Assembly: GCA_964658305.1 (NCBI GenBank)
Contig: OZ210884.1
Coordinates: 1,426,001-1,490,000 of the forward strand
Origin: Leptogorgia sarmentosa
Lineage: Eukaryota
DNA: 64,000 nucleotides
Direction of reading: 5' to 3'
Numbering within the stretch: the first letter of the stretch is position 1; every line of letters starts with the position of its first letter. The position numbers and the translations under genes are program-made. This document shows, in pieces, positions 14,487-60,900 of this stretch. Under the pieces are notes generated by a model. It saw only the letters and a list, made by a program, of their open reading frames with translations, had not been told where the DNA came from and ran no database searches.

Positions 14487-14500
14487 CTATACTTTTAAAG
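14487..14500 (-). CDS. Terminal coding exon (ALKV-stop)
   Basis: Strong tttttttcag acceptor, TAG, and AATAAA on the minus strand at 14467-14472. Confidence 0.55.
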
Positions 14501-59500: not shown

Positions 59501-60900
59501 GGTTGGCTACGCTCTTGGATTTACCCTTCACTCATTGGCAAACATTACAATCTAATTATACCATGTATTATTTAAATAAATAATGTAATCACGAAAACGA
59601 ACAGTTAATCTACTTCGATAAAGAATCTTACCATTTGAGACGTCCGATAGAGCAAATCCTCCTGGGTAAGCGTAGGAAACTCCGTTATTCCAACCAAATA
59701 CAGTGAGACCAAATTTTATAATTGAAGAGGTATGATAAACTGTCACTGCGTTTAGATTGGAAAAACTAAAAACTCTCCAAACGTAGTTTGTCCCATTAAT
59801 TTTCTTCCAGTCTCCGTCAGTAAGTTTTATCTCATTCATGTATAGACCATCGCGATATTTATTCTGTATCACTAAAGTAATGGAGTCATAGTACGTGGTC
59901 CCATATGGAAGAATAACCCGGTAGTAGGAAAAGAACTGGCTTACGGATGGAAGAACTATCATTGAAGGTTCTGAATATTTTCCGTCGATTTTCTCGCCTC
60001 TTGTGTATTGCACCACTTGGCATGGCTTATTACACTTGACAAATGACGTTAAACTTTTCTCCAATGTCAACTCAGTGTACTTTCCAGATACCAAAACCGT
60101 GGACCCATTCAACGTTTCAACGATGGTATTGTTTTCGTAAGCAAATATGCGAAAAATATCACCTTTTGTCTTGTCTGTGGTTCTAACTGTGGTCAAGATG
60201 TATTCTTTTCCCCAAAGTGAGGTTGGCAACAGGAACGATTCCAGCATATCATACGATCCAATGGAACCCGTTGGTTTTGCCCGGTCTACGCCCGATATCA
60301 CGACCACTGGGTTGCTTGAGAGAATAATTGTACCTGAGAGATCCGACAAACTTGAAATATGTAGAGCTTCGAGTTTTTGAAGGGTCAATGTTGCAAAAAA
60401 TAGAGGCGAGTCTTTATCATAAAATAGACCTCGATATTGAACAGCTGCATCTTTGGGAAGTAGAAAAGTAATTGTGTTGTTGTCATGAGGAGATATTATT
60501 GCAAGGTTTGCACGGGAGTTTGAATCATAAGGCTTGTATGATGCAGCGACATAAATGGAACCAAGGGCGTCGGTTGGCAAAGCCAAATATCCATCAGCTG
60601 AGGAAGAGTAGTGATCCAAACAAATCACGGAAATATTCTCGGTTGACGAAATTTCAATGCCGTTCATTTGCTTTCCTGTTCCCTCCATTCGCAATGATAT
60701 CGGTAATTCGTATTCCAATAGTTCACCTCCCTGGATATAGGTGGTGTAGTTGAGAGGTGCATTCGATTTCATGCTCAATATTGTGACGTTTGTGGCAAAG
60801 GGCGCAAATATTGACAATCCAATGTAACCGCTGCGTTGAAATCCCCGATATTGTGCAGTAAATCCGACAATGAAATGTTTTCCATAATTATTCAAATTTC
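14487..60900 (-). CDS. Giant protein (5'-partial, at least ~4500 aa): 10 tandem IgGFc-binding N-terminal-like domains, 9 linker micro-exons and C-terminal EGF modules
   Basis: 24 exons with canonical GT/AG ends; all internal ones are multiples of 3 nt and phase 1-1, so they splice into one open frame. Recurrent motifs DGYLALPT.SLG..Y, DLSGT.I...KPVSVISG, F.L.P.SLWG..Y, PSM..LPS..QFLS.Y and FG..VFGW....SYAYPGG match my recollection of the FCGBP N-terminal (IgGFc_binding) domain. Stop TAG is at 14487-14489 with AATAAA 15 nt downstream. Confidence 0.8.
14672..14791 (-). CDS. EGF-like domain exon (C-terminal)
   Basis: 120 nt: SDCRAHGCKNSYVCRILDGRYTCGCQNNYETVKCTDEIT; within ORF 14613-14819. Confidence 0.75.
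14855..14977 (-). CDS. Cys/His-rich exon ending in a furin-type site
   Basis: 123 nt, cag/gtaaat: EAFDLLHSCDDKHSLSKVCLNPACSAICFLEHKMHRFTRSA. Confidence 0.7.
15204..15670. mobile_element. Degenerate foldback MITE
   Basis: tggaccttaatttaac ... gttaagttaaaggtcca ends; 15277-15375 is an imperfect inverted copy of 15510-15610. Confidence 0.65.
15700..15822 (-). CDS. Calcium-binding EGF domain exon
   Basis: 123 nt, phase 1-1: EIDECALDIDNCHPQAKCEDVPGSFICSCRDGFVGDGVNCQ. Confidence 0.9.
16070..16186 (-). CDS. EGF-like domain exon
   Basis: 117 nt, phase 1-1: EYNCSNLRCEGNFVCKEVDGYLTCACPLGFTGDNCDQYQ (6 Cys, CxC..GFTG..C). Confidence 0.85.
17760..19001 (-). CDS. IgGFc-binding-like domain exon 10 (most divergent, C-proximal)
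   Basis: 1242 nt, tag/gtaggt; within ORF 17614-19146. Confidence 0.85.
19293..19340 (-). CDS. Linker micro-exon GEQQTSYIASFKSTFQ
   Basis: 48 nt, tag/gtaaca, phase 1-1; same position relative to domains as the other linkers. Confidence 0.65.
19638..20900 (-). CDS. IgGFc-binding-like domain exon 9
   Basis: 1263 nt, tag/gtaagt; overlaps ORF 19630-20802. Confidence 0.85.
21150..21700. mobile_element. Hairpin-terminated repeat family (copies at ~24540, 28170, 32115, 32525, 35763, 36173)
   Basis: ~145-bp palindrome aattattgaat...attcaataatt at one end and aaccaatca near the other. Confidence 0.65.
21782..21835 (-). CDS. Linker micro-exon DSNPFALSPVPSYQSRLE
   Basis: 54 nt, tag/gtaagt. Confidence 0.75.
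22572..23843 (-). CDS. IgGFc-binding-like domain exon 8
   Basis: 1272 nt, tag/gtgagt; overlaps ORF 22531-23679. Confidence 0.85.
25015..25531 (+). mobile_element. TSD-less hairpin-terminated element, Crypton-like non-autonomous
   Basis: Comparison with the empty site ttttca|atatacg (~29171) shows no TSD. It carries MAARFAEVSQEEIDKIKQESIPKKVKQATKYGLKIFQ (ATG 25128), which resembles Crypton/DUF3504-family N-termini, and a terminal hairpin at 25419-25529. Confidence 0.6.
26520..26632. repeat. Minisatellite, ~5 copies of GTTGACATGTTATGAATGC(G)AA
   Basis: Alternating 22/21-nt units at the centre of the foldback element. Confidence 0.9.
27031..27930. mobile_element. hAT-type MITE nested in the foldback element
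   Basis: TIR CAGGGCCTTTTTTAA and 8-bp TSD GTGATCCA (27023-27030 and 27931-27938). Confidence 0.9.
28286..29062. mobile_element. TTAA-targeting MITE (Kolobok-like termini AG...CT)
   Basis: ~125-bp TIRs and TTAA TSD; empty site gaggccTTAAtaattcagc in the paralogue at ~32631. Confidence 0.85.
29345..29398 (-). CDS. Linker micro-exon DSNPFALSPVPSYQSRLE
   Basis: 54 nt, tag/gtaagt. Confidence 0.75.
30140..31417 (-). CDS. IgGFc-binding-like domain exon 7
   Basis: 1278 nt; translation identical to exon 6. Confidence 0.85.
32992..33045 (-). CDS. Linker micro-exon DSNPFALFPVPSYQSRLE
   Basis: 54 nt, tag/gtaagt. Confidence 0.75.
33788..35065 (-). CDS. IgGFc-binding-like domain exon 6
   Basis: 1278 nt, tag/gtgagt; overlaps ORF 33747-34970. 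Confidence 0.85.
36640..36693 (-). CDS. Linker micro-exon DSNPFALFPVPSYQSRLE
   Basis: 54 nt, tag/gtaagt. Confidence 0.75.
37436..38707 (-). CDS. IgGFc-binding-like domain exon 5
   Basis: 1272 nt, tag/gtgagt; within ORF 37395-38762. Confidence 0.85.
40122..40175 (-). CDS. Linker micro-exon DSNPFALSPVPSYQSRLK
   Basis: 54 nt, tag/gtaaga, phase 1-1; conserved against four paralogues although the surrounding intron is largely unrelated. Confidence 0.8.
40580..41147. mobile_element. Two truncated copies of the 25015-25531 family in opposite orientation
   Basis: 40795-41147 matches 25180-25531; 40580-40790 is a deleted reverse copy. Confidence 0.65.
41615..41811. mobile_element. EnSpm/CACTA-like MITE
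   Basis: TIR CCCTTATGAAAAAT, 2-bp flank AT on both sides, and an interior made of CACATGTGATT-type repeats in both orientations. Confidence 0.7.
43528..44793 (-). CDS. IgGFc-binding-like domain exon 4
   Basis: 1266 nt, cag/gtgagt; within ORF 43511-44935. Confidence 0.85.
45376..45426 (-). CDS. Linker micro-exon GENAIFSSVPLFQKRFM
   Basis: 51 nt, tag/gtaagt, phase 1-1. Confidence 0.75.
   Translation of the reverse strand: MRMQFSHPFRFSRRGS
46089..46452. mobile_element. TTAA-targeting MITE related to 28286-29062
   Basis: TIR AGGTAGGTTACAGTCGCTTTTGCGCATGTGCGATGA, with TTAA on both sides. Confidence 0.85.
46884..47625. mobile_element. Hairpin-terminated repeat (partial copy at 21078-21150)
   Basis: Palindrome at 46890-47031; ggttacggaccg repeats around aaccaatcag at the far end. 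Confidence 0.55.
49108..50373 (-). CDS. IgGFc-binding-like domain exon 3
   Basis: 1266 nt; near-identical to exons 2 and 4. Confidence 0.85.
50956..51006 (-). CDS. Linker micro-exon GENAIFSSVPLFQKRFM
   Basis: 51 nt, tag/gtaagt, phase 1-1. Confidence 0.75.
   Translation of the reverse strand: MRMQFSHPFRFSRRGS
51685..52270. mobile_element. Tc1/mariner-type MITE
   Basis: Near-perfect TIRs of >200 bp starting CAGGGTGTCTCAAAAAAA; TA TSD confirmed by empty sites gagtatatatcttaag at ~43258 and ~48838. Confidence 0.9.
52542..53807 (-). CDS. IgGFc-binding-like domain exon 2
   Basis: 1266 nt, cag/gtgagt; within ORF 52525-53949. Confidence 0.85.
54390..54440 (-). CDS. Linker micro-exon GEDAIFSSVPLFQQRFM
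   Basis: 51 nt, tag/gtaagt, phase 1-1. Confidence 0.75.
   Translation of the reverse strand: MRMQFSHPFRFSSRGS
54654..57993 (+). mobile_element. Non-autonomous LTR retrotransposon (Ty3/Gypsy-type hallmarks)
   Basis: LTRs 54654-55512 and 57127-57993 (TGTTA...TAACA); 4-bp TSD CTAA; PBS-like TGGTGGAGGAT at 55514; purine-rich ggtgggaagga before the 3' LTR; TATAAAA in each LTR; 1.6-kb interior with no gag/pol ORF. Confidence 0.9.
58491..59505. mobile_element. Non-autonomous DNA transposon, AcademH-like, with a RecQ-like helicase remnant
   Basis: ~70-bp TIRs (CAACCTCGTACCCAGGCTCTC...) and 9-bp TSD GCTACGCTC. The minus strand has LKPKQ...LPTGYGKSLVF (Q motif and Walker A of RecQ-type SF2 helicases); the plus strand has a CxxC-containing N-terminal fragment at ~58838. 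Confidence 0.75.
59632..60900 (-). CDS. IgGFc-binding-like domain exon 1 (most 5' in window)
   Basis: 1269 nt, tag acceptor, gtaaga donor; lies within ORF 59552-60940. Confidence 0.85.

Follow-up and report, generated by a model that had tools for sequence, protein, structure and literature searches.

The window analysed here, a 64,000-nt stretch of the octocoral Leptogorgia sarmentosa (contig OZ210884.1, positions 1,426,001 to 1,490,000), carries on its minus strand a giant gene made of nine or ten tandem copies of the FCGBP N-terminal domain (PF17517, IgGFc_binding), hereafter called modules D1 to D10, followed by three EGF-like modules and a stop. That this is one gene is shown by spliced contigs over the last 4 kb and predicted elsewhere. 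The array is convergent with the tandem arrays of amphibians, and its modules have probably lost the only enzyme activity reported for the domain. The likeliest function, to which we give somewhat less than an even chance, is that of an uncut secreted, non-catalytic multivalent binder in octocoral mucus or matrix.

The array gene and its transcript

Ten long open reading frames (ORFs) lie on the minus strand between 17617 and 60940, and all of them match PF17517 far above its curated cut-off of 25.6 bits (143-171 bits, E 3.6e-50 to 1.5e-41), which bears out their assignment as IgGFc-binding-like in the sequence-only reading of this stretch. By tblastn, no further module copy was found in the window. 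Each large exon has a phase-1 AG acceptor and a GT donor, and in each of the nine gaps between them there is a single small exon (48-54 nt, phase 1-1), so that modules are separated by linkers of 16-18 residues. All 21 internal exons have AG/GT ends and phase 1, and none of the ten large exons contains a stop or a frameshift. This ordered arrangement is far beyond chance. Together with the last exon, the internal exons keep a frame open over 4,519 residues (~505 kDa), of which the big modules make up 93.5%. The model has 62 N-glycan sequons, no VWD units (GDPH count 0; the part upstream of the window is unseen) and no transmembrane stretch (peak 19-residue hydropathy 1.65, and 0.97 in the last 200 residues); both absences had been noted before, and both hold. 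The second EGF-like module exceeds the Pfam cut-off (EGF_3, 1.1e-12); the first and third fall under it (4e-4 and 0.015), yet each has six Cys, and they are 76% and 60% identical, respectively, to EGFs of Dendronephthya LOC114532010, a model that terminates in the same manner, with a module, then EGFs, then a stop. The exons are as follows, X4 to X6 being the spliced sequencing runs described below.

59632..60900, minus: module 1 (D1), large exon, PF17517; Pfam match and splice ends; nearest named relative Dendronephthya LOC114532035 module 1, 63%
54390..54440, minus: small linker exon, 51 nt, predicted; AG/GT, phase 1-1
52542..53807, minus: module 2 (D2); Pfam match and splice ends
50956..51006, minus: small linker exon, 51 nt; phase 1-1 splice signals
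49108..50373, minus: module 3 (D3), 99% like D2 and D4; Pfam match, splice ends and pairwise comparison
45376..45426, minus: small linker exon, 51 nt; phase 1-1 splice signals
43528..44793, minus: module 4 (D4); Pfam match and splice ends
40122..40175, minus: small linker exon, 54 nt; phase 1-1 splice signals
37436..38707, minus: module 5 (D5); Pfam match and splice ends
36640..36693, minus: small linker exon, 54 nt; phase 1-1 splice signals
33788..35065, minus: module 6 (D6); Pfam match and splice ends
32992..33045, minus: small linker exon, 54 nt; phase 1-1 splice signals
30140..31417, minus: module 7 (D7), identical to D6, in an exact 3,648-bp tandem duplicate; pairwise comparison
29345..29398, minus: small linker exon, 54 nt; phase 1-1 splice signals
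22572..23843, minus: module 8 (D8); Pfam match and splice ends; an X4 contig ends at the D8 donor with 54 further letters
21782..21835, minus: small linker exon, 54 nt; splice signals; 31 extra letters before D9 in X4, X5 and X6 contigs
19638..20900, minus: module 9 (D9); Pfam match, splice ends and spliced contig
19293..19340, minus: small linker exon, 48 nt; splice signals; contig gap of equal length
17760..19001, minus: module 10 (D10), the most divergent; Pfam match and contig; sister to the Dendronephthya modules preceding EGFs
16070..16186, minus: EGF-like exon 1; gene model, sub-cut-off Pfam match and Dendronephthya match
15700..15822, minus: EGF-like exon 2, calcium-binding type; Pfam match
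13735..14791, minus: EGF-like module 3, short tail, stop (14615-14613) and 3' untranslated region (UTR); unspliced 1,058 nt on contig
13207..13340, minus: last non-coding exon, after the 3' UTR intron (13734-13341); 134 leftover contig letters, GT and AG ends

Six sequencing runs were found, none of them annotated as RNA, and four were compared with positions 11000-24500. The contigs of run X1 continue through the introns; those of X4, X5 and X6 skip them, and these three runs, which belong to one study, were therefore taken as cDNA. In both X5 and X6, one contig of 4,015 nt aligns to 19637-20899, 17760-19001 and 13734-14791. Its unplaced parts of 31, 47+1, 240 and 134 letters correspond to the end of a small exon, the 48-nt exon, the first two EGF exons and the 3' UTR exon, and the spliced length predicted from the gene model is the same, 4,015 nt. 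The same joints occur in pieces in X4. The spliced contig thus links modules 9 and 10 to all three EGFs and to the 3' UTR; contigs of this kind show neighbouring junctions, not one molecule spanning all of them. Beyond the third EGF the contig continues to the stop at 14615-14613; the 3' UTR after it is interrupted by a GT-AG intron. Because 14671-14501 is unspliced, the last exon ending at 14487 that had been proposed earlier is not used in the contig: the in-frame join to three EGFs and a stop stands, with the stop elsewhere. The proposal of one gene rather than ten is likewise substantiated for these 4 kb; the junctions among D1-D8, which no contig examined crosses, are predicted from splice signals and from database gene models of relatives.

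Could D1-D8 instead be separate genes or partly silent duplicates, outside the D9-D10-EGF transcript? The lack of any read or contig across their junctions would allow it, as would introns of up to 5.1 and 5.5 kb with mobile-element remains and the chance that D7 is an assembly copy. We nevertheless find this highly improbable, given the intact frames of all ten exons, the in-phase linker exon in every gap and the absence of any start or signal exon seen between modules. Furthermore, synonymous changes exceed amino-acid changes between module groups (pS 0.34-0.49 and pN 0.09-0.20 for D4 versus D5-D8), and database models of relatives connect such modules via the same linker.

The 3' end bears on another alternative, in which the array would form the exterior of a membrane receptor, with transmembrane and kinase exons in another splice form. 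Dendronephthya LOC114532167 has a signal-like start, a linker, three related modules, an FN3 domain, a transmembrane segment and a tyrosine kinase, and other forms are conceivable here, given that the EGF3 donor is read through and that the 3' UTR holds an intron. However, the contig is unbranched through the stop and UTR in two of the three spliced runs, a convergent gene lies directly downstream, and the alternative acceptors at 14500 and 13340 (the latter judged by eye) both meet a stop within ten codons. A receptor form of this gene is accordingly very hard to credit. As a side observation, an Oculina model also couples one such domain to a kinase.

At the other end, neither a signal-peptide exon nor a first exon was found in 60901-64000; the gene must then begin outside the window, and additional modules are possible. 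In a Dendronephthya model, modules do precede a D1-like one. Two candidate linker/signal exons in 60901-64000 were dismissed as poor.

Growth and separate origin of the array

The units of module, intron and linker are nearly identical within two groups (98-99% for D2-D4, 95-99% for D5-D8). Since the near-identical units include introns, we infer that the unit of small and large exon would have been duplicated in tandem via unequal crossing-over. A stretch of 3,762 nt is identical at a period of 3,648 and covers module 7, which must have been duplicated very recently unless the assembly has over-expanded the repeat. All ten modules counted earlier are in the record, and this exact 3.6-kb identity makes the number nine or ten; summed contig depth over D8 does not separate three from four copies of the D5-D8 group.

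Modules D5, D6 and D8 are patchworks. Between D6 and D8, 38 sites differ in the first 400 nt of the exon and seven in the other 875, and their introns have about 45 differences in 1,386 columns (clustering, Fisher p 3e-14 and 7e-7). Synonymous sites are raised as well (15/90 versus 4/201), a pattern that points to an older segment having been exchanged and that does not demonstrate positive selection.

Among named proteins, those of Dendronephthya gigantea (LOC114532010 (XP_028409407.1), LOC114532035, LOC114532036, LOC114541737, LOC114533393 and LOC114532167) and Paramuricea clavata (CAB3997085.1) come closest, all of them uncharacterized models. They share a clade and the linker pattern with the Leptogorgia gene, and the modules are 51-69% identical. 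These octocoral models have two to five modules each and appear split, whereas the present array has nine or ten; moreover, Dendronephthya has amplified the D10 type and Leptogorgia the D2-D9 type. Many single-exon module ORFs lie on contigs of equal length (e.g. 11 at 613,496 nt), which suggests split arrays in other assemblies. One ORF is 81% identical to D8 and has its own loop sequences, a further module type of this or a related species.

A profile search over 1.84 billion representative sequences retrieved 6,689 proteins at E 0.001 or better. Among the best 150 of these, 16 have three or more matched stretches and three have ten or more. Multi-copy proteins in the databases include the following.

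Axolotl XP_069460991.1: 17 copies, uncharacterized
Lissotriton (newt) XP_078509955.1: 11 copies, uncharacterized
Chromosphaera protein: 10 copies, uncharacterized
Shark (catshark) protein: six copies, a ZP domain and a membrane anchor
Caecilian protein: 5-6 copies
Owenia protein: four copies with CUB and EGF
Bacterial-type protein: three copies with CHU_C

In a quick tree of 87 rows (with the careful search unfinished, D3 and D7 omitted as near-copies and at most five modules per long protein), repeats cluster by lineage, including those of the axolotl, newt, Chromosphaera and catshark arrays. A careful tree of 26 rows places the octocoral array modules as a clade (100/100) inside octocoral-like single-exon proteins, and groups the amphibian arrays with VWD-bearing reptile proteins; octocoral and amphibian arrays are split in the quick tree as well. 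A single clade of octocoral and amphibian arrays is rejected by an approximately unbiased (AU) test devised after the first tree was seen (p 1.6e-127). The trees and this rejection together indicate that the coral array is convergent with the amphibian one. The array thus represents a recurring design with a separate octocoral origin, and the databases suggest further ones in shark, ichthyosporean and bacteria.

Central loop, fold and possible functions

The only enzyme activity reported for the domain in the literature consulted is that of the Bombina peptidyl L/D-isomerase, which stems from the same kind of array (PMC3195878, PMC3325411); PMC3325411 and PMC11277431 agree on this enzyme. The sequence-only reading, which had described the ligand as poorly defined, overlooked this activity, for which a motif offers a test. 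Located through the published description and Bombina database proteins rather than the enzyme's own record, a His-x-Cys...Cys-x-His motif occupies the aligned central loop of Bombina and most other vertebrate rows. Five of six parsed Bombina bombina loops have the whole motif, as do 20 of the 38 loops that could be parsed in 46 vertebrate proteins; in 118 more distant proteins, 53 of 62 parsed loops keep the second His. None of the ten window modules has either conserved His or the Cys pair; their loop is Cys-free and variable in length. Of the 154 loops that could be parsed in 161 octocoral-like proteins, 135 likewise lack both His and the Cys pair; the remaining 19, which belong to more distant, apparently single-domain forms, keep the second His. 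The middle repeats of the axolotl array similarly lack the first His and the Cys pair.

Peptide isomerase activity has thus likely been lost in the window modules, judging from sequence. The motif is a proxy, since none of the texts consulted maps the catalytic residues, and the two His that D5-D8 have inside the loop, beside the conserved places, make the loss likely rather than proven. That the gene nevertheless encodes a peptidyl L/D-isomerase polyprotein, whose substrates might be venom or defence peptides, would fit the origin of the reported activity and these two His. It seems very improbable to us: none of the ten modules retains either conserved His or the Cys pair, and a reagent that modifies His inactivates the frog enzyme (PMC3195878).

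A model of a Paramuricea module with its linker (119-row alignment) is all-beta with a pLDDT of 89, that of the linker being below 50. Structural matches to it fall in four separate ranges (about 17-130, 128-225, 240-320 and 320-434), which we read as four predicted beta-sandwich subdomains. Subdomain 1 of D8, folded alone, reaches a pLDDT of 75. Its best structural match by two programs is the ASRAH domain, an eight-stranded beta-sandwich represented by TM1070 (Z 9.2, rmsd 3.7 over 104/116 residues, the only Z of 8 or more; Foldseek E 2.8e-3) and ASRT (Z 7.1). The TM1070/ASRT (ASRAH) family is predicted to bind sugars (PMC2739507). Identity is, however, 11-15% at rmsd 3.7-4.4, ASRAH is prokaryotic, and its sugar binding is itself a prediction. 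A sequence search of solved structures with D1 gave no match (best E 0.16), and Foldseek with the whole module gave only matches of low TM-score to multi-domain beta proteins. The prediction of a two-copy complex of the Paramuricea linker and module scored 0.00, which is no evidence either way.

Sequence entropy over 66 close rows is highest in five loops, and the central loop without the His/Cys motif is one of them. When D5, D6 and D8 are compared, 35 of 112 columns vary in subdomain 1 versus 12 of 303 elsewhere. In the four loops that follow strands 1, 3, 5 and 7, 21/40 columns are variable, versus 11/59 in the strands (p 0.0009); strand order, rather than coordinates, would place these loops at one end. 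The variable exposed loops are rich in Tyr, Arg, Trp and His.

It is on these observations that we build the reading of an uncut secreted binder. Each module would fold as four beta-sandwich subdomains and be tied to the next by a linker predicted to be disordered. The motif-bearing loop has been exchanged for a Cys-free variable one, with which isomerase activity would have disappeared; copies differing in their exposed loops might confer several binding specificities on one chain. Weak binding of single modules to glycans or microbial surfaces could then be multiplied by avidity, resulting in mucus cross-linking or microbe trapping. The proposed ligand class rests only on the fold likeness to predicted sugar-binders and on the mucus or skin roles of relatives. 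Secretion is predicted from sequence; the signal-like N-terminus of LOC114532167, followed by a linker and module, supports it. The same modules also build the exterior of a predicted receptor kinase, where ligand-binding domains sit, and amphibian skin contains tandem arrays of the domain as secreted proteins in large amounts (PMC11237159). A secreted multivalent protein, as first proposed, accordingly stays the likeliest reading, with its signal peptide outside the window.

A number of points weigh against it. A fold likeness at rmsd 3.7 is no evidence of function. No ligand for this domain is reported in any species in the literature consulted, IgG binding by the human domain was not reproduced (PMC8267560), and the role of the human domain has been called unclear (PMC11796319). 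The difference in variability between loops at one predicted end and the other is not significant (p 0.085), and the bias towards subdomain 1 is weak in Paramuricea (16/112 versus 23/301) and Ambystoma and absent from three other arrays checked, which does not bear out subdomain 1 as the generally variable part. Moreover, recombination patchwork explains the variable region, where pN is 0.09-0.13 and pS 0.17-0.23 (pN/pS about 0.5-0.6). With D2-D4 99% alike and D6 identical to D7, there are about six or seven distinct module kinds. The absence of the signal peptide from the window and the His neighbouring the conserved places in D5-D8 count here as well, and the 3' UTR intron at 13341-13734, ~880 nt past the stop, is a possible trigger of nonsense-mediated decay.

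Alternatively, the product might be a glycoprotein with a structural role in mucus or glue, on the model put forward for frog PRIT (PMC11237159). Its modules would then serve as beta-sheet units, stiff or sacrificial, and carry glycans through which lectins cross-link them, and the loop differences would be neutral. The many N-glycan sequons, the absence of a positive selection signal and the variation of other arrays, which is not concentrated in subdomain 1, speak for it, as does, weakly, an extra tail Cys here and in the Dendronephthya model that could link chains. Long disordered Pro/Gly O-glycosylated repeats are absent between modules, whose linkers are short; the same modules occur on a receptor kinase, and the loops are enriched in variable columns. 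We consider this possibility unlikely, albeit a serious contender.

The chain might also be a polyprotein cut at its linkers into modules of ~48 kDa, as the Bombina enzyme is, each transcript thus delivering many slightly different units. A Val-Pro-x-Tyr/Phe-x-x-Arg motif is kept in eight of the nine window linkers and in the Dendronephthya and Paramuricea models, though it is disordered in the model. However, the ninth linker has no Arg, and furin-type R-x-x-R sites are absent from the window linkers. The LOC114532167 kinase has the same linker between its modules and after the signal-like start, where cutting would shed the exterior. Processing of this kind therefore strikes us as rather unlikely. 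The binder, structural-glue and cut-polyprotein readings overlap in part, and the isomerase, receptor-form and separate-genes readings are improbable even when combined.

A more far-reaching reading is that octocorals might have made a variable recognition module out of an FCGBP-N domain devoid of catalysis, with outer loops diversified and reshuffled between copies, secreted chains of ten or more modules serving as multivalent agglutinins and a receptor tyrosine kinase with the same modules signalling on the same ligands. We regard this scenario as unlikely. If true, it would amount to an undescribed innate recognition system of corals and to the first ligand class named for an ancient domain.

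Neighbouring features and known systems

A convergent multi-exon gene with a signal-like start occupies about 2798-13227 on the plus strand; its scanned pieces gave no Pfam, NCBIfam or meaningful PDB match. Its amphipathic helices may resemble jellyfish-type pore-forming toxins. Its contig in the spliced runs ends at 13227 and that of the array gene at 13207, so that the 3' ends overlap by ~20 nt. Mobile elements have left several traces.

54654-55498 and 57127-57971: 845-bp direct repeats in the first intron, 99.4% identical, reminiscent of the two flanking ends of a short non-autonomous retroelement
63196-63732, minus: C-terminal remnant of a hAT transposase (PF05699, E 1.5e-12)
21146-21625, 24538-28412, 32113-32918 and 40597-41151: high-copy palindromic mobile elements in introns, some of them nested

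The FCGBP N-terminal domain is found in organisms as far apart as bacteria and humans, in the latter in gut mucus. Vertebrate FCGBP shares with the coral gene this domain and the mucus context of the family (PMC4948705, PMC8267560, PMC11796319). However, it has a single N-terminal copy followed by VWD-C8-TIL units with GDPH, whereas here the domain is repeated without VWD-C8-TIL or GDPH. Lang et al. (2016), who defined the domain, describe it as usually N-terminal, with two copies in some vertebrate proteins; their Fig. S5 (974 proteins) may already show multi-copy invertebrate proteins (PMC4948705).

The Bombina L/D-isomerase polyprotein resembles the coral array more closely, with the same domain in tandem, short spacers and a unit of ~50 kDa (PMC3195878, PMC3325411), and differs in the two His and the Cys pair of its central loop, which all ten window modules lack. 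The PRIT proteins of frog glue and amphibian skin (Zaman et al. 2024, PMC11237159) also have IgGFc-binding domains in tandem through exon duplication, no VWD units, a giant transcript and a glycoprotein product. In the glue forms of PRIT, long disordered, O-glycosylated repeats lie between domains, whereas the coral gene has short conserved linkers, C-terminal EGFs, cnidarian relatives and a separate origin. The architecture had been thought undescribed; as amphibian tandem arrays are known, and the databases hold proteins of 10-17 copies, this main claim to novelty falls. Within the literature found, tandem arrays are described only in amphibians. The main text of PMC11237159 makes no mention of cnidarians or corals, its supplements possibly covering non-vertebrates, and we found no description of a cnidarian tandem array in a literature search that covered subscription journals thinly.

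New as far as our searches reach are the independent octocoral expansion, the changed central loop and the co-occurrence of secreted and receptor-kinase forms. Gene finders split such genes. The coral set, with modules that have or lack the His/Cys loop, near-identical copies differing in a few loops, and both secreted and receptor forms, offers a natural comparison that makes the ligand question directly testable.

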